Virus record (IMG/VR): IMGVR_UViG_3300028833_000112
Coordinates: 30,212-94,211 of that record
Reading direction: 5' to 3' (one strand)
DNA: 64,000 nt
From: a virus
Lineage: Duplodnaviria > Caudoviricetes
Within the stretch, counting starts at the first letter, position 1; every line of letters starts with the position of its first letter. The translations under genes were made by a program, and so were the position numbers. Below the pieces are notes generated by a model. It ran no database searches. It had not been told where the DNA came from and worked only from the letters and a program-made list of their open reading frames with translations. Shown piece after piece: positions 24,874-53,121 of the stretch.

Positions 24874-25179
24874 TAACCTTTGCCACGCGGGGTGAGTATA
24901 CTTGACTAAGCCGTTGACTCTCGCCCCGCTTTGAGCGAACATGACACCCGAAAGGAGGTGCCGCTAATGTTCGTTTGGTACGCTGACAGCGTTAAGAAGG
25001 AAGCCCGCGAGATTTACGCTCAGGTCAAAGTGCACGGCTGCAAAGCTTGCCCCCGCCGCGAGTGGTGCGAAAAGCGTTTCGAGGATTGCTACTTGAATAT
25101 TCTTCGCGAGCTTCAAACCCGTTACGACTACAAAGTTGACCTGCAACAAAATTACGGAATTTACTGAGGAGGTCAGACC

Positions 25180-42375: not shown

Positions 42376-42858
42376 GGGATTTGAAATGTTCGAACAAATG
42401 ATTGATACTCTTGGCTCGCATTTGATGACGGCGTTTAATGCTTTCGTGATTGTGGCGTTGTTTTTTCTCGTTTGCGGAGCGTTGTTTCTAATCGGTAGTG
42501 TGTTGGTTCGATTGGTTTGTTGCGTGAACGAACGCCTTGCCAAAAAGGTTTACGACATCGAAGACCACAACGACGTTTGGAAATGAGAGGATTGAAATGG
42601 AATATTTTCAAGCGCAGGACGGGAAGAAATATTGTTTTAAAAAGTTTTACGGTTTCGGCATGAATTTTGAAACGCTGGCTGTCTTCGGATGTGTATATGA
42701 AGATGATGAAATTTTACTTGGCGAATACGAATCAGAGACAGAATTGCTCAGCGTGGGGGAAGCGCAACGTGAAGCCGAGGAGCAAGGCAAATCGGTTTTC
42801 ATCTTCCCGCCGAAAGGGTTTTCAAAGAGCAGGTGACGTGAACAGAAAGTGTGATGAT

Positions 42859-43278
42859 ATGACTGAGAAAGAATTGAATCGCGTGCGAAACTTGAAAAAG
42901 AAAATCGAACGCGAAGCAGAACGCGTGGCGGGGACTCGGCGGGCGATAACAGATTTGGTTCCGTTCCTCGACGGCATGCCGCACGCACAGAATCAAAGTT
43001 CGCGCGTGGAGAAATTGACGGCGCAAATCGTCGACGGAGAGAGACGACTCGACGAGCTCAAGGACGAAATGGCAGCGGAGGCGGCGGCATTGACGGCTGA
43101 AATAAGTCGCGCGCCGTTGAATCGGCAGGAACACGACGTGATTATGCTCCGCTATGTCACGTGCTTGAACTTTCGCGATATAGAGTTCCGGCTCAATTAC
43201 TCGGACGCGAATGTTTTTTATCACCACCGAAACGGCACGAAAAAATTGTTCGGCAAAATTCCTTTTGATTCGGATTGA
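42859..43278 (+). CDS. RinA/ArpU-like late transcription activator
   Basis: LDGMPHA...VIMLRYV...IEFRLNYS...YHHRNG; last gene before the packaging module. Confidence 0.75.
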   Translation: MTEKELNRVRNLKKKIEREAERVAGTRRAITDLVPFLDGMPHAQNQSSRVEKLTAQIVDGERRLDELKDEMAAEAAALTAEISRAPLNRQEHDVIMLRYVTCLNFRDIEFRLNYSDANVFYHHRNGTKKLFGKIPFDSD

Positions 43279-43392
43279 AAAATTTTAAAGTAGCTTAACA
43301 GTTGCATTACAGTCGTATCATCTGATATTGTTACGCTGAAAAATTTTGTAAGACTCCCGCCCGCGTGGCGGATATTTTTTTTGGAGGGAAAG

Positions 43393-43854
43393 ATGAATCA
43401 GTGGGAACGACAGCCGCACGAGAGTTATCCCGCGTTCACTGCGTTTAAGGTATTCTTGACCGTGAGGAGTTACCCCGATGTCTCCAAGCAGCTGTCGAAG
43501 TCGCTGTCGTTGATAAAGCGTTGGGCGAAGCAATACGCGTGGAAGGCGCGGGCGGACGCATGGGACAATGAAATTAGTCGCAAGGCAATGGAAAAGGCGT
43601 CGGAAGATTTTACGACGATGGTCGAGCGGCAATTGAATATCGGGCGGCTCATGCAGGCGAAGAGTGCCAACGCGCTCAAAGAAATGGACTTAACAAATCT
43701 GCCGCCGAAATTTATTCCGGCGTTGGTGTCCATGCTCAAGGCGGGCGTCGATATCGAGCGGTCGGCACGCGAATTGCAAATCGAAAAGCCGCAGGAGGAT
43801 TTGTTCGTTAATACGCTCACTCGCATGTGGCGGGAGCGCGACGGCGATGACTGA
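43393..43854 (+). CDS. HTH protein, possibly terminase-associated
   Basis: WERQPHES..AFTAFKVFL...IKRWAKQYAWKARADAWD. Confidence 0.6.
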   Translation: MNQWERQPHESYPAFTAFKVFLTVRSYPDVSKQLSKSLSLIKRWAKQYAWKARADAWDNEISRKAMEKASEDFTTMVERQLNIGRLMQAKSANALKEMDLTNLPPKFIPALVSMLKAGVDIERSARELQIEKPQEDLFVNTLTRMWRERDGDD

Positions 43855-44314
43855 ACAGCAAAAGCGATTTGTGGATTTTTATATCCAGACGGCGAACGCG
43901 ACGGAGGCAGCGAAGCGCGCGGGTTACTCGCCGAGGACGGCTTACTCCAGCGGGCAACGATTGCTCAAGCGTGAAAATATTCGGCGGGCGATAGATGAGA
44001 GGATGGACAGCTTGGAGAACGAACGAATAATTCAGACGGAAGAAATATTGGTGCACTTGTCGGACGTGATACGCGGGCAGGTGACGGAGACGATTGTCAC
44101 GCCGGGTGGCAAAACATTTTTAGTGCCTGTGCGCGAGGCAGACAGACTTCGTGCCGCCGAAACCATTTTGAAAATCCGCGGGTTGTTCCGTGATAAGGTC
44201 GACGTAAAAGTCGGCGGGGCTGAATTGTTCGTGCGAACATTGGAGCAAGCGTGGACGGAGGAAACGGGAGGTGATGGTCGTGCTCGTGCGAGCGATGAAA
44301 CGCTATCGCAATGA
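43847..44314 (+). CDS. terS: Terminase small subunit
   Basis: MTEQQKRFVDFYIQTANATEAAKRAGYSPRTAYSSGQRLLK. Confidence 0.92.
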   Translation: MTEQQKRFVDFYIQTANATEAAKRAGYSPRTAYSSGQRLLKRENIRRAIDERMDSLENERIIQTEEILVHLSDVIRGQVTETIVTPGGKTFLVPVREADRLRAAETILKIRGLFRDKVDVKVGGAELFVRTLEQAWTEETGGDGRARASDETLSQ

Positions 44315-45679
44315 CCCTGCGGCGTTCGTCAGAGAGATACTTCACGCCGAGCCGCAAGCGTGGCAGGCAGAAGCCTTGAGCGCATTGGCAGGACACAAGC
44401 GATTGGCAGTTCGCAGCGGGCACGGCTAGACGTCGGCAAAACGTGCTTGGAGGCGTGGGCAATACTCCACTTTCTGTTCACGCGTCCTTATTGCAAAATC
44501 CCGTGCACAGCTCCGACGCAACAGCAGCTGTATAAAATTCTGTGGTCGGAAATTTCAAAGTGGTTACAGCGTTCGGAATTGCTTTCGGATTTATTTGAGT
44601 GGACGAAAACGGAAATTCGATTCAAGGGCGCGCGCGAACGATGGCTGGCAATGGCGAAGACCGCGGCGAAACCCGAAAATTTGCAGGGCTTTCACGATGA
44701 CCACTTGCTGTTCGTTTTGGACGAGGCGAGCGGTATCGACGACGGGATATTTGAGGCGGTCGAAGGTGCATTGACGACGCCCGACGCGCGATTGCTCATC
44801 ATGGGCAACCCGACGAAGAGCACGGGTTTTTTTAAGCGCGCGTTCTTCGAGGACAGAGATTTTTATTACACAATGAAAGTTTCGTCGGCGGATTCGGAGC
44901 GTGTGTCCAGTGAATATTGTCAGCGGCTGATTCGGACTTACGGCATGGAGTCAAACGTCGTTCGCGTTCGAGTGCTCGGCGAATTCCCCGAAATGGATTC
45001 GGACAGCTTAATCGCGCTGGAGTGGGTGGAAGCCGCCATGAATCGCGAGCCGCCCTGCGACGAAAACGGCAAGCCGATTTACTCAGGCGAATTGGTTCTC
45101 GGCGTCGACGTTGCGAGGTTCGGCGACGATGAAACTGTTCTCGCGGCACGAATCGGTGACACAGCTTTGCCGCTGAAAAAGTGGCGCAAGACTGACTTAA
45201 TGACGACCACGGGCAGGATTGTCGGCGAACTCGAACGGCTGATGAAAAAATATGAGCACGGGCGCGCGAAAATCAACGTGGACGACACGGGCGTGGGCGG
45301 TGGAGTCACTGACCGCCTGCGTGAAGTGATTCGCGAAAAGAAATGGTACGTGACAGTTACCGGCTGTAACAACGGTGGCGCGGCTCGTGACAAACATTAT
45401 TTGAACTGGGGTTCGGAGAGTTACTTTGCGCTTCGTGACCGTTTGCAGGCGGGCGAAATAATTCTTCCCCGTGATGATGAGATGGCGGCTCAGCTGTCGA
45501 CGCGAAAATATTTCGTGAACAGCGCGGACAAATTGGTGCTCGAACGCAAGGACGAATTCAAAAAAAGATTGGGCAGGTCGCCTGACCGAGCAGACGCGTT
45601 GGTTTTGGCGTTCGCGCCGACGGTGGCTGTGACTGCCCCGCCGCAAATCCCGCTGGTACAAAGTTATTGGTTCCGATAA
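44274..45679 (+). pseudogene. terL: Terminase large subunit interrupted by a 5-nt insertion in Walker A
   Basis: Frame from 44274 reads ...WQAEAL...LAVRSGHG then TAG; deleting TAGAC (44427-44431) restores RSGHGVGKT. Downstream motifs: FVLDEA, MGNP, GVDVARFGDD, SPDRADA. Confidence 0.85.
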
Positions 45680-46924
45680 TTGGAGGACGACGTGACGACA
45701 GAAAAATTAGAACTGATTGAGCTTGCGAAGCTCAAGCCGTATGCAGGCAACGCAAGGACACACAGTGAAAGTCAACTTCTTCAGCTTCAGAAGTCTCTTA
45801 GAGAGTTTGGATTCGTTAATCCCGTGCTGGTCGACAGCGGGCTGAACATAATCGCGGGGCACGGGCGAGTACTCGCGGCACAGGCGGAGGGATTTGACCG
45901 CGTGCCGTGTGTGTTCGTGGAACATTTGACCGAAGCGCAAAAACGGGCGTATATCCTCGCGGACAATCGCTTGGCGGAAATGGCGGGCTGGGACGAGGAA
46001 AAATTAAAAATCGAATTGGACGCTCTCCGCGAAATGAATTTCGATATCGGGCTTACCGGCTTCGACGATTACGAATTCAAAAATTTGGACGTGGCGGAAG
46101 ATAATTTTGACGTGGACGCCGCCTTGGAGAAACCCGCTGTCGCCAAACTCGGCGACATTTTTTATTTGGGCAGGCACAAAATAATTTGCGGCGACGCAAC
46201 CAAGCCTGAAACGTTTGAACGGTTGCTCGGTGGGCTGAAAGTGAACCTTTTGTTGACCGACCCGCCGTATTTCGTCGACGAGGAAAATAATTCGGGCAAA
46301 ATTTTAAATGACGATTTGAGTGCCAAAGAGGGCTACGAATTTTTGCGTGCGGCGTTCGAGAACTGCAAGGGCGCGATGGCGAACGACGCGGCGGCGTATA
46401 TTTTTTACGCGTCGAGCAAAACGCGGATATTTTTTGACGCGTTCGAGGACGCGGGTTTTTACGTCATGGCGGGTTTGGTCTGGCTGAAAAATTGTTCCGT
46501 GCTCTGCCGCGGTGATTTCAATTTCAAGCACGAGCCAATAATTTACGGGAAGAAAAAACGCGGGACGCACAAGTGGTACGGCGACCACACGCAAACGACC
46601 GTCCTCGAATTCCCGCGAATAATGGACTCGGTGGCGGAAGGCTTCGGTCACCCGTCATCAAAACCGTTGCCGCTGGTCAGCTACCTGCTCTCGCTGTCGA
46701 GCAAGCGGGGCGACAAAATTTTGGACTGCTTTTTGGGTTCGGCGTCGACGCTTATCGCCGCTGAGCAGACGGGGCGCACGTGCCTTGGGGTGGAGTTGGA
46801 GCCGCGGTTCGTGGACGTTGCCGTCGAGCGTTTCAAAACCGTTTCGGACGAAAAAATTTTCGTCGAGCGGGACGGTCAACGGTTCGCCTTGGGCGCGTCA
46901 AGTATACAGGATTCGTCGCGGTGA
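45680..46924 (+). CDS. ParB-like nuclease domain + DNA methyltransferase
   Basis: LKPYAGNARTH...IIAGHGR...ADNRLAE; TDPPY; HPSSKP; ILDCFLGSAST. Confidence 0.9.
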   Translation: MEDDVTTEKLELIELAKLKPYAGNARTHSESQLLQLQKSLREFGFVNPVLVDSGLNIIAGHGRVLAAQAEGFDRVPCVFVEHLTEAQKRAYILADNRLAEMAGWDEEKLKIELDALREMNFDIGLTGFDDYEFKNLDVAEDNFDVDAALEKPAVAKLGDIFYLGRHKIICGDATKPETFERLLGGLKVNLLLTDPPYFVDEENNSGKILNDDLSAKEGYEFLRAAFENCKGAMANDAAAYIFYASSKTRIFFDAFEDAGFYVMAGLVWLKNCSVLCRGDFNFKHEPIIYGKKKRGTHKWYGDHTQTTVLEFPRIMDSVAEGFGHPSSKPLPLVSYLLSLSSKRGDKILDCFLGSASTLIAAEQTGRTCLGVELEPRFVDVAVERFKTVSDEKIFVERDGQRFALGASSIQDSSR

Positions 46925-47003
46925 CCGCTTGACTTCCCCGGCGTTTAGAGCGAACATGCGCACACCGAAAGGGAAAACAAAAAAATGAAAAGAGGAAACC
47001 AAA

Positions 47004-47210
47004 ATGACGAGAACCGAAATTGAAAACGAAATGACAGCGATAGCGCAGGAGCGCGGCGAAATTTTCGACGAGCTGGACGCGATAGCCGCCGAGGACGACC
47101 CGCTTTGCGGCACCCCGCAGCACCACATCGACGCGCTGGAAGCCCGCGCCGCCGAACTCCTCACCGAATACTACGCGCTCTGGGCGCAACTGGACGCAGC
47201 CACCGCCTGA
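47004..47210 (+). CDS. Small acidic helical protein (cassette 1)
   Basis: GAGG RBS; own promoter and terminator. Confidence 0.75.
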   Translation: MTRTEIENEMTAIAQERGEIFDELDAIAAEDDPLCGTPQHHIDALEARAAELLTEYYALWAQLDAATA

Positions 47211-47408
47211 GCCAAAAATTTCTCCAAGGAAGAGCCCGCCAAGGACGGCGGGTTTTTTCGTTGCCTCGCCGAAAACGCGGGCGGCAATTTTGTTTTACCC
47301 GAAAAAATTTTTTTACTTTTTTTGAGAAAACCGCTTGACTTTTGGCGGAAGGAGAGGTAATATATAATCACCGAAAGGGAAAAACAAAATAAAAAGGAGA
47401 AACCAAAA

Positions 47409-47591
47409 ATGAAAAACGAAAACAAAAAAGGAACCCAGAAAGCCGCAAGGAACACCTACAAATGGTTGATTGAAGCCACCGAGTGGTATTACACAAGGAA
47501 AACCGACGCAGGCCGCCGCACCGCGATTTACGAAATCGAGTGGCACCTGCAAACCTTGAACCGCCTCCGCAACGCCCTCGCCGCGAAGTAA
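47409..47591 (+). CDS. Small basic helical protein (cassette 2)
   Basis: AAGGAG RBS; own promoter and terminator. Confidence 0.75.
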   Translation: MKNENKKGTQKAARNTYKWLIEATEWYYTRKTDAGRRTAIYEIEWHLQTLNRLRNALAAK

Positions 47592-47878
47592 ACCGAAAAC
47601 CCCCGACACCGACAACCCGCCAAGGACGGCGGGTTTTTTCGTGCGAAAAAATTTCCCTCGACGGGTCGAAACCGCTTGACTTCCGCGGCGGGTAGAGGTA
47701 ACCTATGGTCAACCCGAAAGGGGAAACCAAGGGGGTAGTCCGAGCCGAAACTTGGGCGCGCCCAGCCGGGTCACGAAAATTACGGCATATTTTTTTTTGC
47801 ACCGGGTTGACTTTGCCTGCGGTTAGAGGTAATATCCACTCACCGAAAGGGAAAAACAAAATAAAGGAGAAACCGAAA

Positions 47879-48085
47879 ATGAAAACCGAAAACAAAAACC
47901 GCAAAGCGACCTTGGAACAGCAAAAAGCCGCAACGCAAAACGAGCTCGGTCACCTGAACCTGATTATCAGCGACTCGCTCGAAATTGGCGGCGAAGATGA
48001 ATTTTACGCAGGATTGTGCCGCGAAGCCGCCGGGTTGAAACGCCGAATTCGGATAATCGACGCGGAGCTTGCCGCAATCGCCTGA
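47879..48085 (+). CDS. Small helical protein (cassette 3)
   Basis: AAGGAG RBS; own promoter and terminator. Confidence 0.75.
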   Translation: MKTENKNRKATLEQQKAATQNELGHLNLIISDSLEIGGEDEFYAGLCREAAGLKRRIRIIDAELAAIA

Positions 48086-48256
48086 GCCAAAAATAAAATC
48101 GAAACCAACAAAACCCTGCCACGGACGGCGGGGTTTTTTCGTGCACGGGAGCCGTCAAGTATACACGACGGTCGGGGCAAAAACGCTTGCTATGTGTTTT
48201 CGGTAGAGGTAACATGCGGTCACCGAAAGGGAAAAACAAATAAAGGAGAAACCAAA

Positions 48257-48529
48257 ATGAACACCACCGAAAACAAATCCGAAGCCCTGAAAGCCCGAAT
48301 CCTCGAATTGCACGCCGCGGAGCGCGCGCTCGACGAAGAATACGAGCGGCTGGGTTATTACGAGAAGTGCCCCGAATTTGACGGGAACCCCGAAGGTCGG
48401 CTGAGGGCGCAGAACAGCCTCGAAACCCAAATGTCGCGGGTGCACCTGCAGGCGTGGAAACTCGCAAAAGAATTGCGGCAAATTGACCACGACGCTTGGG
48501 CGAGCCTCCCGAAAGAAATTCGCGGCTAA
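48257..48529 (+). CDS. Small helical protein (cassette 4)
   Basis: AAGGAG RBS; own promoter and terminator. Confidence 0.75.
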   Translation: MNTTENKSEALKARILELHAAERALDEEYERLGYYEKCPEFDGNPEGRLRAQNSLETQMSRVHLQAWKLAKELRQIDHDAWASLPKEIRG

Positions 48530-48681
48530 AATAAAATCCGGCTCCACAGCCCGCCAAGGACGGCGGGTTTTCTCGTTCACGCGACCCGTGAAGTATACAC
48601 GACACGCCCGCCCAAATGACTTGCTATGTGTTTTGGTTAGAGGTAACATGCGCCTACCAAAAACACAGGGGGTTCGGGAAA

Positions 48682-49545
48682 ATGAAAAATCAAACAATCG
48701 GGGCGGAGCTGGAGTTCACGGGGCTCACGCGGAGAGCAGCGGCGCGGGTTATTGCCGAAATTTTCGACACGACGGTTTACTCGGTCGGGATGAACGGCTG
48801 GGCAGCAGAGGACGACGCCGGGCGCGAGTGGAAAGTCGTTTACGACAGCTCGATTCGGCGGGAAGACGGCGAACAGTGCGAATTGGTTACCCCGATTCTC
48901 GGCTGGGCGGATATCGAAACCCTGCAGATGATTGTGCGCGAATTGCGGCACGACGGCGCGAAGGTCAATAATTCTTGCGGGCTCCACGTCCACATCGGCG
49001 CGGCGGGCATGACGGCGCAAGCGGTTCGGAACTTGGTGAACAATTTCGCCAGCCACGAAGCCCTGCTCATCAAAGCCCTGGACGTCCACGAAAATCGCCG
49101 CAGGTATTGCAAATCCCTTGACGAAAATTTCATTCGCGAGCTGAACGAACGCAAACCCGCAACCCTTGACGGTGTCGGCGAAATTTGGTATCGGAGACCC
49201 GCGGGCACCTTCCCGACGTATCATTACCACGAAAGCCGTTACCAAACGTTGAACTTGCACGCAACCTTCACGAAGGGCACGGTGGAGTTTAGATTTTTCA
49301 ACGGCACCATGCACGCGGGCGAGGTCAAGACGGCGATTCAACTGGCGTGCGCGCTGGTCGCCAACGCGAAGGCGGCGAAGAGGACGCTTTACCGCCCGAT
49401 TGAAACCGACAATGACCGATTCGCGATGAGGACTTGGTTGACTCGACCGCAGGGATTGAATTTGAACGGCGAAGAATTTTCGACGCTCAGATACCATTTG
49501 ACGAAACGGCTTGAAGGCAACGCGGCTTGGCGGCACGCGGTGTAA
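48682..49545 (+). CDS. Amidoligase_2 family (COOH-NH2 ligase)
   Basis: IGAELEF, WKVVYDSSI, CELVTPIL, SCGLHVHI, RYQTLN, TVEFRFF. Confidence 0.9.
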   Translation: MKNQTIGAELEFTGLTRRAAARVIAEIFDTTVYSVGMNGWAAEDDAGREWKVVYDSSIRREDGEQCELVTPILGWADIETLQMIVRELRHDGAKVNNSCGLHVHIGAAGMTAQAVRNLVNNFASHEALLIKALDVHENRRRYCKSLDENFIRELNERKPATLDGVGEIWYRRPAGTFPTYHYHESRYQTLNLHATFTKGTVEFRFFNGTMHAGEVKTAIQLACALVANAKAAKRTLYRPIETDNDRFAMRTWLTRPQGLNLNGEEFSTLRYHLTKRLEGNAAWRHAV

Positions 49546-50092
49546 GAAGCAGGACGGGGCGGGGCAACCCGCCCTTGGTGAAAGAAAGGCGGAGTGAATA
49601 TGGCACGGGCAGATTTTCTCGAAAAAGCAATTGCGTTGCACGGGGATGCACGGGCGCGAGCCAACGACGCTTACGCCACAATGCTTGAAGCCTCGGATGA
49701 GGATGAGCGGCGCGCGGCTATGGAAATATTTTTCCGCTGGTCGCAGGCACAAAGCGGTTTGAAATCTGCGATTGAAGTTTTGGTTGGAATGGAGTGAGTA
49801 ATGTGAAGCTCGAAGATTTTGCCAAGCTGAAAAATCTAGTCGAACAAATTTCGGAAATGGTAGCGGACGAATGCTCCGAATCTTGCCGCTTACTCAGCTA
49901 CGTAAAAGGAATCACGGGCAAAGGCAAGGAGTGGGCGAACGTCGATACAGTGTGCGACTGCTGGCTTAATTTAAGCGAGGATTTTAGGTGCGCCTGTGAA
50001 ACTTTGGCTCGGTTAGAAAAATGCGGTGAATGGGTCGAGTGGGACGGCAAAGAGTTAGCGAAAAGCGGCGAATGGGTTTGGACTAGAATGGA

Positions 50093-50548
50093 GTGAGCAG
50101 CGTGAAATATTTGGCTTACGGGGCGAACATGGACGAGGGCATTATGGCTCAGCGGTGCCCGAAAGCGAAATTACTCGGCACGGGCGAATTGGATAATTTC
50201 CGCCTGATGTTCAAAGGGGTTGAGCCGAGAGCCTACGCGACAATCGAAGAGTGGCAAGGATACAAAGTTCCGTTCGTGCTCTGGGAAATTTCCGAGGAGC
50301 ACGAGAAAGCACTTGACCGATTTGAAGGTTACCCGAAAAGTTATCTCAAGCACGTGGTCGAAATTGAATTCGGCGGCGAAAAAGCTTTGGCGATGTATTA
50401 CGCGAAGCCGGAGGAGCAACCCGTCGGGCAGCCGATGACTCACTATATCAGCGTGTTGGAAGAAGCCTACGTGCGGTGGAAATTTAATCGCGCGATTTTG
50501 GATGCCGCGCTGAAACTCAGCGACGATTATTATCAGCGCAATTTTTAA
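50093..50548 (+). CDS. Gamma-glutamylcyclotransferase (AIG2-like)
   Basis: YLAYGANM...RCP...LDRFEGYP. Confidence 0.88.
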   Translation: MSSVKYLAYGANMDEGIMAQRCPKAKLLGTGELDNFRLMFKGVEPRAYATIEEWQGYKVPFVLWEISEEHEKALDRFEGYPKSYLKHVVEIEFGGEKALAMYYAKPEEQPVGQPMTHYISVLEEAYVRWKFNRAILDAALKLSDDYYQRNF

Positions 50549-50560
50549 CGAGGACTCGAA

Positions 50561-51793
50561 ATGAAATTTGATAAAGAATATGGGCGCGTCGGGGCGAATC
50601 GCTACGGCGGCTCTTTTTTTGAAGAATTCTTGCCTGAACTTCGCGGAGCCGACGGCATAAAAATTTACAAAGAGATGAGCGATAACGACGACATGATTGG
50701 CGCGGTGCTCTTTGCGATAAAAATGTTGATTCGGCAGGCGAGCTGGACAGTTCAGCCGCAGGGCACGACCGCCGCCGATAAAAAAGCCGCAGAGTTCGTT
50801 GAATCGTGCTTGCACGATATGTCGTCGACGTGGACGGACACGCTCAGCGAAATTCTTTCCTTCCTGACCTACGGCTGGTCGGTCGTCGAAATTGTTTACA
50901 AACGGCGCATGGGTCGCAAGCGTGACCCGCGTTTGGAGAGTAAATTTGATGACGGCTATATCGGCTGGCAGAAATTGCCGATTCGCGCGCAAGAAAGTTT
51001 GTACGAGTGGGAATTTGACGGTGACGATAATCTGACCGCGTTCGTGCAAATGCCCGCGCCTGATTTTCAGATAATCCGAATCCCCGTCGAAAAAATTTTA
51101 CTGTTCCGCACCGAGAGCCGCAAAGAAAATCCCGAAGGTCGCTCAATCCTCCGCAACGCCTATAAATCTTATTACCACAAGAAACGAATCCAAGAAATTG
51201 AAGGTATTGGCATTGAACGTGACTTGGCGGGCTTCCCATTGCTCATCGCGCCCGAAGGCATGAATATTTGGGAGATGCCAGAAAAATTCGCGGAGGCTAT
51301 GACCTTCGTGCAAAATATTCGGCGGGACGCAATGGAGGGCTTCGTTTTGCCCAGCGGCTGGGAATTGAAATTGCTCTCGACAGGTGGAGCCAGACAATTT
51401 GACACCAACGCCGTGATTCAACGCTACGACCAGGCAATTGCGCGGACGGTGCTCGCCGATTTTATTTTGCTCGGCAGTCAGAACGTCGGAAGCTGGGCGT
51501 TGTCGAGTGACAAAACTCGGCTGTTCGCCATGGCAATCGGCGCATATCTGGATATTGTCACCGAGGTTTTCAATCGTCAGGCGATACCCGCGTTGATTGA
51601 CGTGAACGGAAAAGTTTTCGCCAGGATAACCGATTATCCGCGATTGGAGCACGGAGATATTGAAACGCAGGATTTGAATGCGCTGGCGACTTTCATCAAA
51701 GAAATGGTCGGAATCGGTGCGATAACTCCCGATGAAAATCTGGAAGAATATTTGCGTGAGCAAGCTTCTCTGCCGCAGAATTTGGAGGATTAA
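50561..51793 (+). CDS. Portal protein (DUF935/Mu gp29-like)
   Basis: YGWSVVEIVY, NPEGRSILRNAY, IGIERDLAG, YDQAIARTVL; first gene of the head module. Confidence 0.85.
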   Translation: MKFDKEYGRVGANRYGGSFFEEFLPELRGADGIKIYKEMSDNDDMIGAVLFAIKMLIRQASWTVQPQGTTAADKKAAEFVESCLHDMSSTWTDTLSEILSFLTYGWSVVEIVYKRRMGRKRDPRLESKFDDGYIGWQKLPIRAQESLYEWEFDGDDNLTAFVQMPAPDFQIIRIPVEKILLFRTESRKENPEGRSILRNAYKSYYHKKRIQEIEGIGIERDLAGFPLLIAPEGMNIWEMPEKFAEAMTFVQNIRRDAMEGFVLPSGWELKLLSTGGARQFDTNAVIQRYDQAIARTVLADFILLGSQNVGSWALSSDKTRLFAMAIGAYLDIVTEVFNRQAIPALIDVNGKVFARITDYPRLEHGDIETQDLNALATFIKEMVGIGAITPDENLEEYLREQASLPQNLED

Positions 51794-51828: not shown

Positions 51829-53121
51829 ATGATAGTTTTTCGGAAGGCGCGGAATCCGCAGCAGACGCTCAATGACTTGGACGCGTATTTGCGGACGGTC
51901 GGAGATAAGCCTGTGCGTTGGCTGGCACGCGAAGTGCAATCGTGGGGCGAATTCAGCTACGACGAAATTGCCGCGTTGATTGAGAACGGACAGCTGGACG
52001 CGCTGATTGATTGGCAGGAACGTTGGGCGGGCGTCGTGAATCAAACCTTGGCTCCGATGTGGACAAAGGCAATCGAGGAGGCGTCGCGCAAGGCAACCAA
52101 GGGCATGACCGTCCTTTCCGACAGCAACGATTATGTCAAGGCGTGGGTGAACAGTCACGGCGGCGAGTTAATCACTTTGCTCAGCGATGAAAGCCGCAAA
52201 GCAATTTCAAATATCCTGCTCCGTGGTCAAGGCTTGCGAATGGCACCGCGCGATATTGCAAAAGATATTCGTCCGCTGATTGGACTGACTGACAGGCAAG
52301 CTCAGGCGAACGTCAAGTACAAAGACCGCGTTTATCAGAAATATTTGGACAACGGCTTGAGTGAATCAAAGGCGCGCGAGAGGTCGGAGGCGGCGGCACT
52401 CAAGTACGCGGGCAAGCAACATCGTTATCGCGCCGAATCGATTGTGCTCACGGAAAATGCGTTCGCCTATAATCGCGGGGCGCACATGGGCGTGAGTCAA
52501 TCAATCGCGGATGGCTACATGGGACGCTGCGAAATGGTGTGGACGACTGCCGGGACAAATCGCGTGTGCGGGCGTTGCATGGAGCTCAAGGATACCGTGG
52601 TTGGCTACACTGACCAGAGCGGAGTGACAATTCCGCCGTTGCACCCGCGTTGCCGTTGCGCTATCATGTACCGCGAGGTCGGCATACCGAGAGTAATGCA
52701 GTCGAAGCCGAAGCCTGAAAGCGGACTACAAAGACCGTCAGCAAATAGAGGCGCATTTGCTCACTTGGAAGTGCCAATGCAACTGCGAGCGGTTAAGCAA
52801 ATTTGTCACAAATATGGCGTCAAAATATCTGAACTCAAAATAAAAATTCAGCGAAGGGAAGAATGGCTGACGGCAAAATACAAATATGCAGGAATGACGG
52901 ACTACTACGACATTGGGCGAATAGATTTAACTCCTCACGCATTTGCCAATGAAGAAGAACTTTTGCGGACTGTTATTCATGAAGGGTGCCATGTTAAGCA
53001 ACTGAAAAAATATGGGCGAGAATATGCACAAGAACATATAAATCGAATGGAACAAGTGGCAGAACGATACGAAAAATTATTCTTGCGAATAGTAAAAAGG
53101 AGGAAACAACATGCCTCGTAA
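51829..53121 (+). CDS. MuF-like minor head protein with a C-terminal HExxH extension
   Basis: VCGRC...PPLHPRCRC MuF motif, then an AT-rich tail with LLRTVIHEGCH. Confidence 0.8.
   Translation: MIVFRKARNPQQTLNDLDAYLRTVGDKPVRWLAREVQSWGEFSYDEIAALIENGQLDALIDWQERWAGVVNQTLAPMWTKAIEEASRKATKGMTVLSDSNDYVKAWVNSHGGELITLLSDESRKAISNILLRGQGLRMAPRDIAKDIRPLIGLTDRQAQANVKYKDRVYQKYLDNGLSESKARERSEAAALKYAGKQHRYRAESIVLTENAFAYNRGAHMGVSQSIADGYMGRCEMVWTTAGTNRVCGRCMELKDTVVGYTDQSGVTIPPLHPRCRCAIMYREVGIPRVMQSKPKPESGLQRPSANRGAFAHLEVPMQLRAVKQICHKYGVKISELKIKIQRREEWLTAKYKYAGMTDYYDIGRIDLTPHAFANEEELLRTVIHEGCHVKQLKKYGREYAQEHINRMEQVAERYEKLFLRIVKRRKQHAS

Follow-up and report, generated by a model that had tools for sequence, protein, structure and literature searches.

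Predicted promoter-leader repeats frame a tandem array of small-gene cassettes in the packaging module of a rumen/gut phage

Why does a phage carry, amid its packaging genes, a run of small open reading frames (ORFs) that each appear to have their own promoter and terminator, and what do the repeated sequences between them do? We addressed this question in a 64,000-nucleotide (nt) stretch of DNA (the window), which comprises bases 30212-94211 of the 94,211-bp IMG/VR virus record IMGVR_UViG_3300028833_000112, an estimated 87% complete record of a phage of rumen/gut type. The locus is an array of repeated units between the TerL and portal genes. The original prediction described it as an integron-like, recombination-shuffled series of individually expressed effectors, whose internal terminators implied antitermination or re-initiation, and put it forward as an undescribed system. 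Our analysis favors a tandem array of self-contained expression cassettes, whose repeats would serve as recombination patches and whose promoters are probably read with help from a sigma-like regulator. We judge this reading to be the probable one, with substantial doubt attached.

We searched the record with the promoter pattern TTG(M)(Y)(W)-N12-AGAG(S)(K)AA(Y)(M)T. All six near-identical promoter units of the original prediction were matched within 1.8 kb with 0 mismatches (units 1 to 6; coordinates of all features are in Table 1), and a seventh site was found at 24914 with 1 mismatch. These 7 matches compare with 0.36 expected from shuffled sequences, in which the highest count was 2, and the rest of the 94-kb record (the other 30 kb) holds no more copies. 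The geometry is uniform: a -35 element of TTGACT or TTGCTA, a 17-nt spacer and a -10 element of TAATAT, TAACAT, GAACAT or TAACCT. The leader CCGAAAGGG(R)AAA occurs in 5 copies (46965, 47371, 47714, 47843 and 48223; 0.49 expected), of which 4 continue into AAAGGAGAAACC and then an ATG, bearing out the predicted five leaders with four ribosome-binding sites. The terminator core GCCAAGGACGGCGGG is present in 4 copies (47238, 47619, 48118 with 1 mismatch and 48553; 0.18 expected). Folding calculations gave the four terminator hairpins energies of -15 to -17.4 kcal/mol (z -3.3 to -3.65), with a U tract after each, while the shared leader is nearly unstructured (-2.4 kcal/mol, z -0.6). The upstream box GTSAAGTATACA precedes three units, as originally described (46897, 48154 and 48588), and a reversed copy lies at 24895, 8 nt upstream of the 24914 promoter.

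The same arrangement bears on whether the repeats are expression signals at all. They could instead be sites for a packaging or partition protein, either TerS pac boxes or sites of the ParB-domain methylase, as their location in the packaging module beside a ParB-N-domain protein and the palindromic GTATAC core would allow. Against this stand the exact -35/-10 geometry of every unit, its fixed distance to the leader, Shine-Dalgarno sequence and ATG of a conserved ORF, and the orientation of all units with the genes. We find this explanation barely credible.

Unit 3 is empty, as originally described: neither a ribosome-binding site nor an ORF intervenes before the -35 of unit 4. L119, the one relative whose DNA was compared (contig JAFXQM010000027.1, from a sheep-rumen Selenomonadaceae metagenome-assembled genome, or MAG), matches the window exactly over roughly the first 55 nt that unit 3 would transcribe (~47711-47763), and the tail of the unit has diverged. 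We rejected unit 3 as a small RNA, its fold being no better than those of shuffles (z -0.99). A 126-amino-acid (aa) ORF at 47705-48085, which is in the frame of ORF C and has its ATG within the -10/start region of unit 3, is probably not a gene, since its start precedes the likely transcript start and it runs through promoter 4. Long minus-strand ORFs over the array, such as 47967-48605, also run through promoters and terminators.

Each intergenic repeat of ~120 nt is a composite of an intrinsic terminator, an A/T-rich spacer, a GTATAC box in some copies, a promoter and a leader. The promoter part combines sigma-70 geometry with the conserved AGAG extension, and the leader part is unstructured and A-rich with a strong Shine-Dalgarno sequence. 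In the cassette reading, each repeat would stop the upstream transcript and start the next, so that the small genes would be insulated and each expressed at its own level. The last copy, unit 6, is positioned 33 nt upstream of the amidoligase ATG (48682) and heads the operon that runs from the amidoligase to GGACT, portal and MuF, as had been proposed; it would restart transcription for all of these genes. We found no terminator-like site on the + strand between 48569 and 53856. Because promoter 6 would restart transcription and no + strand terminator follows until 53856, antitermination, one of the two options in the original prediction, is not required.

A related possibility is that the leader is itself a nut-like or structured RNA signal, which loads an antiterminator to pass the four terminators between TerL and portal. 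At the 5′ end, the sequence CCGAAAGG could fold into a 2-3-bp stem capped by a GAAA loop. We rejected this hairpin, as the leader is unstructured and the hairpin-incompatible variant TACCAAAAAC is common, occurring in many members of the promoter-leader class described below, including unit 6. Moreover, each cassette and the amidoligase-portal operon have a promoter of their own, a lambda-type N/nut boxB-like hairpin is not found in the leader, and an Rfam scan of 46500-49000 at E up to 10 returned chance-level matches only. We consider a nut-like leader very improbable. An antisense RNA to the shared leader was also sought in the 94-kb record, with a longest complement of 10 nt. Between terminator A and promoter 2, a 14-nt stretch (47287-47300) is 93% complementary to the shared leader (GGGAAAAACAAAAT at 47377 and 47849), and in a read-through RNA it could pair with that leader.

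We next consider the cargo. ORFs A to D have no mutual similarity by BLASTP or by hhalign profile comparison, in agreement with the original description of four unrelated small ORFs ending in a common terminator, and searches against Pfam, PHROGs and NCBIfam returned nothing below E 0.02. ORFs A and D are modeled as two-helix hairpins, with predicted local distance difference test (pLDDT) values of 92.9 and 91.9. Their homologues, on ENA, Logan and NCBI contigs (5-10 kb and 456 kb), have 64-99% identity, the same length and an invariant loop DPLCGTP for ORF A, and 70-98% identity, the same or nearly the same length and an invariant loop CPEFDGNPEGR for ORF D. Since homologue length is kept and the loops are invariant, A and D are, as judged from these alignments, real genes. 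ORF C has a single distant homologue (57% identity) among 1.8 billion representatives. Compared with L119, the ratio of non-synonymous to synonymous substitution rates (dN/dS) is ~0.15 for C and D, calculated from few changes. For ORF D, an ESM Atlas search gave uninformative scores of at most 0.79, and a Foldseek search of its model against the PDB found generic helical hairpins only (E >0.4). On these searches, all four qualify as narrow-range ORFans. An anti-defense role for the four proteins is a guess; counter-defense is plausible, as the DNA methylases in the island suggest counter-restriction.

The cargo also bears on how the array arose. It could be a plain moron array formed by tandem duplication, with ORFs that diverged or were born de novo, repeats that have no role in exchange, and an ORF B that reflects a single unrelated horizontal transfer. 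Consistent with duplication, the units stand head to tail within 1.8 kb with a common leader, start-codon region and terminator, and the repeat runs into the first 6-7 codons of the ORFs (MKNENK, MKTENK, MNTTENK). ORFs A and C, both of 68 aa, also have their last four codons and 3′ flank in common (repeat D9), and A and D belong to one fold class, the helical hairpin. However, duplication does not account for ORFs that lack sequence or profile similarity, for a promoter class that flanks unrelated ORFs in many other phages, or for the replacement of ORF B with breakpoints exactly at the repeat edges. We hold this origin to be distinctly unlikely.

That replacement was found in L119, whose array is syntenic with that of the window at 89-97% identity (90-100% in the flanks of ORF B). 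The segment 47200-47427, including the promoter and leader of cassette 2 and the first six codons of ORF B, is 96.5% identical in L119, and the segment 47578-47700, with the last ORF B codons and the terminator, is 90.3% identical, whereas the 150-nt interior of ORF B (47428-47577) is 36.7% identical. In its place, L119 encodes a different 70-aa protein that keeps the start MKNENK and the end AAK. A pattern with such sharp edges is beyond point mutation, and it therefore indicates replacement by recombination at the conserved flanks. L119 has a second replaced patch in the tail of empty unit 3. Cassette content is thus not identical among relatives and varies between conserved repeats, as the original prediction had anticipated. 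Acting as homology patches, the repeats would allow ordinary homologous recombination to delete, insert or replace ORF bodies, and the exchange we propose would not be site-specific capture of the integron type.

Contigs from two metatranscriptome libraries, which stem from relatives at 90-95% identity and are possibly DNA-derived, contain further joints: in one arrangement unit 3 is followed by the canonical leader, and in another a C-type ORF has a unit-5-type 5′ flank. These joints lend weak support to cassette exchange. A second variable spot was seen just after the amidoligase at 49532-50141, the place of two small ORFs, where the RNA-library contigs of relatives skip 49532-50141 or 49786-50086 and L119 has an extra 133-aa ORF (11330-11731 of L119). 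Elsewhere, L119 has a 266-aa NUMOD4/HNH_3 homing-endonuclease-like gene (6559-7359 of L119) exactly at the junction of the TerL stop and methylase start, which is absent from the window (the site is between 45679 and 45680).

Is the promoter-leader combination peculiar to this phage? We scanned IMG/VR with the pattern AGAG, -10, N5, CACCGAAAGGG and found the AGAG/-10/ACCGAAAGG class in at least 114 stretches, mostly from Candidatus (Ca.) Heliusvirales phages of gut Clostridia. All of the matches listed have a -35 (TTGCTAT or TTGATAT) at equal spacing and an upstream TTGTGTAGTATAT-like box, with a Shine-Dalgarno sequence and ATG ~36-53 nt downstream of the leader start. Other copies at these loci have a variant leader, for example TACCGAAAGG or TACCAAAAAC; unit 6 has the second of these, which makes the small CC/GG hairpin impossible. 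A consensus was built from 120 distinct units. The pattern that defines the class is TTG(C/A)(T/C)(A/T), N12, AGAG, NN, AA(T/C)AT, N5, (C/T)ACC(G/A)AAA, then a Shine-Dalgarno sequence and ATG, co-oriented with the genes. Units 1, 2, 4 and 5 match it in full and unit 6 is its ACCAAAA variant. Downstream of class copies lie an amidoligase gene (~315 aa) and ORFs 50-123 aa long.

In GenBank, the class matched Ca. Heliusvirales phages with assignments to Acutalibacteraceae, Lachnospiraceae, Ruminococcus, Coprococcus, Agathobacter, Dorea, Clostridium and others. Five whole records have 2-6 copies each, all co-oriented with the genes and clustered at the amidoligase/terminase junction, while a reversed control pattern had 0 matches in the same records. 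Complete arrays recur as well: at one locus (L083), five units occupy 4.2 kb, and in each of them AAGTATACA stops 21 nt short of the -35, as in units 5 and 6; another (L114) comprises three units that share a repeated terminator of their own; and a third (L061) has five units of the same array design. Within the 2.5-Mb MAG that holds L119, the motif occurs in the phage array and nowhere else, and the class is consequently not a general host promoter. The nearest relatives of the window's portal belong to a human fecal phage (62%) and Arthrobacter siphophages (46%). As classified by its portal, the phage of the window is not a member of the Heliusvirales, and the class therefore crosses phage lineages.

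The genes around the repeats recur too. A Ca. Heliusvirales locus (L135; record PV036426.1, 25055-39037) has TerS, two DNA methylases, two amidoligase paralogues, GGACT and small ORFs, then TerL, portal and capsid, with class copies before the second amidoligase and before the small ORF preceding TerL. The recurring island order in this locus and in the window looks like a shared accessory hot spot within the packaging module. Using the amidoligase as a probe in IMG/VR, we found no close relative, and a leader 20-mer searched in IMG/VR and metagenome contigs recovered unrelated phages with the same class and no close relative. Literature searches with the motif strings, and with Heliusvirales plus promoter or amidoligase, found no description of the promoter/leader class; a paper on Heliusvirales phylogeny mentions neither promoters nor amidoligase.

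What reads these promoters? Conservation among phages of many host families reaches beyond the hexamers, which suggests an additional reader, and the promoters are probably read with help from a phage-encoded, sigma-region-4-like regulator of the phrog_36 family. A co-oriented phrog_36 member lies 4-8 kb upstream in the phage of the window and in 5/5 other motif-bearing records, one of which is L119. In one 107-kb record (G004, the record of L011), the phrog_36 match at 42390-42839 is interrupted by two in-frame TGA codons, and the gene may be broken or its stops recoded.

Alternatively, the units could be host sigma-A promoters, active immediately on infection or constitutively in the lysogen. 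The array would then hold early or lysogenic effectors, and GTATAC would serve as an operator through which a repressor keeps units 1, 5, 6 and the 24914 copy silent in the prophage. Units 2 and 4 match the sigma-70 consensus at 9/12 positions with the 17-nt spacer, and a weaker -10, (G/T)AACAT, is common to the promoters with a box (1, 5, 6 and 24914). The boxed 24914 copy heads an anti-repressor/DnaD/DnaC/methylase/SbcC/Erf module, a typical repressor-controlled early operon, and putative XRE-type regulators in the window would fit the same picture. However, unit 6 must also supply the portal and MuF genes, and a Heliusvirales copy stands directly before TerL, portal and capsid, both of which argue for late activity. 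Conservation of AGAG and the leader start across phages of many host families, together with the motif's absence from the host-like MAG, also opposes the use of host sigma-A alone. We regard this explanation as unlikely, yet as one to be taken seriously. The GTATAC box itself may be an activator or a repressor site. On the minus strand, GTATAC is found at 2590 and 21771, both intergenic and within -10-like TG(N)TATACT elements toward leftward genes; from these sites, the box core may resemble an opposite-strand -10.

Several observations weigh against the cassette reading that we favor. The recombination claim comprises one clean replacement in one relative plus contig joints with sides of 30-58 nt, and the RNA-library contigs, being from relatives and possibly DNA, show neither transcript starts nor expression. 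phrog_36 is a broad sigma-like family that also matches 12/14 control bacterial genomes, and a BLAST search of the window's phrog_36 protein against GenBank phages found no homologue; given this breadth and the lack of a BLAST-level phage homologue, the link between regulator and promoter is only positional. The distance from box to -35 differs by copy (11, 21 and 21 nt; ~14 nt in the main family), and one common binding geometry is not established. Finally, the 24914 copy heads an anti-repressor/replication module, an arrangement at odds with a class that is purely late.

A wider reading can be put forward tentatively, although we think it doubtful on balance. The promoter and leader would form a portable 'expression plug' that is read by a phage-encoded, sigma-like factor of the phrog_36 family and has spread across unrelated phage lineages of gut and rumen Firmicutes with the methylase/amidoligase island, its copies acting both as on-switch and as recombination handles for trading small counter-defense proteins. 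Ca. Heliusvirales and their kin are among the most prevalent human gut viruses, and their gene control is almost unstudied. A conserved promoter/leader that marks accessory genes would be a sequence handle for finding cargo genes (candidate counter-defense or host-modulating genes), and the same element would offer a means of expression for genetics in hard-to-engineer gut Firmicutes.

An accessory island interrupts the packaging module and contains the array; the gene order is TerS, TerL, ParB-methylase, array, amidoligase, GGACT and portal (Table 1). The TerL gene reads as a GTG-start ORF of 439 aa whose N-terminal Walker A part is in another frame (region 44254-44445). TerL of L119 (5147-6466 of L119) is likewise 439 aa with a GTG start, and RNA-library contigs of more distant relatives have 1, 2 and 3 extra nt at 44254, 44256 and 44263.

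Table 1. Features of the cassette array and its surroundings, in window coordinates
Feature	Position	Strand	Remarks
Upstream GTCAAGTATACA box 1	46897..46908	+	overlaps final codons of the ParB-methylase gene
Predicted promoter unit 1	46929..46957	+	TTGACT, 17-nt spacer, GAACAT; AGAGC abuts -10
ORF A	47004..47210	+	68 aa; predicted helical hairpin
Terminator A	47233..47258	+	CCCGCC/GGCGGG stem and U6, -17.3 kcal/mol
Predicted promoter unit 2	47335..47363	+	TTGACT, 17-nt spacer, TAATAT; without upstream box
ORF B	47409..47591	+	60 aa; interior 47428-47577 replaced by unrelated sequence in relative L119
Terminator B	47614..47639	+	
Predicted promoter unit 3 ('empty')	47676..47806	+	TTGACT, 17-nt spacer, TAACCT; leader-like start
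Predicted promoter unit 4	47807..47835	+	TTGACT, 17-nt spacer, TAATAT; without upstream box
ORF C	47879..48085	+	68 aa
Terminator C	48113..48139	+	variant, stem preserved, -17.4 kcal/mol
Upstream GTCAAGTATACA box 2	48154..48165	+	AAGTATACA ends 21 nt ahead of -35
Predicted promoter unit 5	48187..48215	+	TTGCTA, 17-nt spacer, TAACAT
ORF D	48257..48529	+	90 aa; predicted helical hairpin
Terminator D	48548..48573	+	
Upstream GTGAAGTATACA box 3	48588..48599	+	
Predicted promoter unit 6	48621..48649	+	TTGCTA, 17-nt spacer, TAACAT; TACCAAAAAC-type leader
Seventh unit	24895..24942	+	reversed GTATAC box and promoter; heads anti-repressor/replication module
Candidate cognate regulator, phrog_36	42667..43278	+	weak sigma-70 region-4 likeness; just upstream of terS
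TerS-like genes	43381-43854 and 43847-44314	+	
TerL	44360-45679	+	
ParB-N-domain/N6-N4 DNA methylase	45680-46924	+	
Cassette array	46897-48681	+	
Amidoligase_2 gene	48682-49545	+	PF12224, E 2.9e-65; first gene of unit-6 operon
Two small ORFs	between amidoligase and GGACT	+	
GGACT cyclotransferase	50093-50548	+	
Portal	50561-51793	+	
MuF-like protein	51829-53121	+	

Is this, then, a new kind of system? The suggestion of an undescribed system stands in part: the promoter/leader class appears to be unpublished and yet widespread, while the design is already known from morons and from the T4-type repeats discussed last. The window is a good example of the promoter class, not a new kind of system. 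Morons, in the concept of Juhala and Hendrix, are extra genes of lambdoid and other temperate phages that lie between essential genes with their own promoter and terminator. Like them, the cassettes are self-promoted and self-terminated extra genes, which can be missing or different when two close relatives are compared. Unlike them, the cassettes form four tandem units with one promoter/leader/terminator design, whereas classical morons are single and have unrelated signals.

Integron cassettes are promoterless, end in attC sites and need a neighboring IntI integrase with attI and a Pc promoter; the array has none of these features. The array resembles an integron in its tandem small unrelated genes separated by repeated hairpin-forming sequences. 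However, no adjacent IntI tyrosine recombinase was found in the array or its flanks, where the neighbors are TerL, the ParB-methylase and the amidoligase. Every cassette has its own -35/-10, and the hairpin is a 6-bp G+C stem with a U tract rather than an attC-type site, so the integron-like label does not hold.

The host-takeover module of phage SPO1 has ~24-26 small early genes with many strong promoters, is located in the terminal redundancy and is proven to be early. The array shares with it a dense set of small genes, repeated strong promoters and ribosome-binding sites, and a Firmicutes phage as carrier; it differs in its promoters and in its location in the packaging module. The SPO1 module is mentioned in PMC6873191. 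The array also directly precedes a gene pair known from Amidoligase_2 and GGACT/AIG2 neighborhoods of Firmicutes phages (PF12224, PF06094; phrog_2443, phrog_2520), and in Ca. Heliusvirales the same promoter class precedes the amidoligase. These neighborhoods are defined by their enzymes, and the promoter/leader class and the small-ORF cassettes are absent from the published descriptions found.

The closest comparison is with the promoter-early stem-loops (PeSLs) of T4-type phages, which are composite repeats of terminator and promoter that flank ORFans and whose copies recombine to yield insertion, deletion and replacement (Arbiol et al. 2010, PMC2839356; Comeau et al. 2014, PMC4122927). The original prediction drew this parallel, and the -35/-10 units and U-tailed hairpins of individually promoted and terminated cassettes agree with it. 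For PeSLs, mini-circles and promoter and terminator activity have been demonstrated; the promoters and terminators of the array are predicted ones. As with PeSLs, the array combines a stem-loop terminator, a sigma-70-like promoter and an A/T-rich upstream stretch in intergenic repeats that flank small ORFans in a plastic region. Close relatives likewise differ by replacement or indel of an ORF between conserved repeats, and L119 supplies one relative with a variable ORFan whose breakpoints lie in the repeats. Unlike PeSLs, the array has unrelated sequence, a Firmicutes-type host, a non-T4-like lineage and a location in the packaging module; its repeat adds a conserved 5′ leader, ribosome-binding site and first codons, and its class is common to unrelated phage lineages. 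Because neither the portal's kin nor the phages that bear the motif (Ca. Heliusvirales and other Firmicutes phages) are T4-like, we class the array by analogy as a PeSL analogue rather than a member. If the idea of an expression plug is true, it would be a Firmicutes-wide counterpart of the T4 PeSL system with a dedicated transcription factor. Repeat-mediated cassette shuffling has so far been documented in T4-like phages, whose hosts are Gram-negative, and the array would carry it into a very different group of phages.

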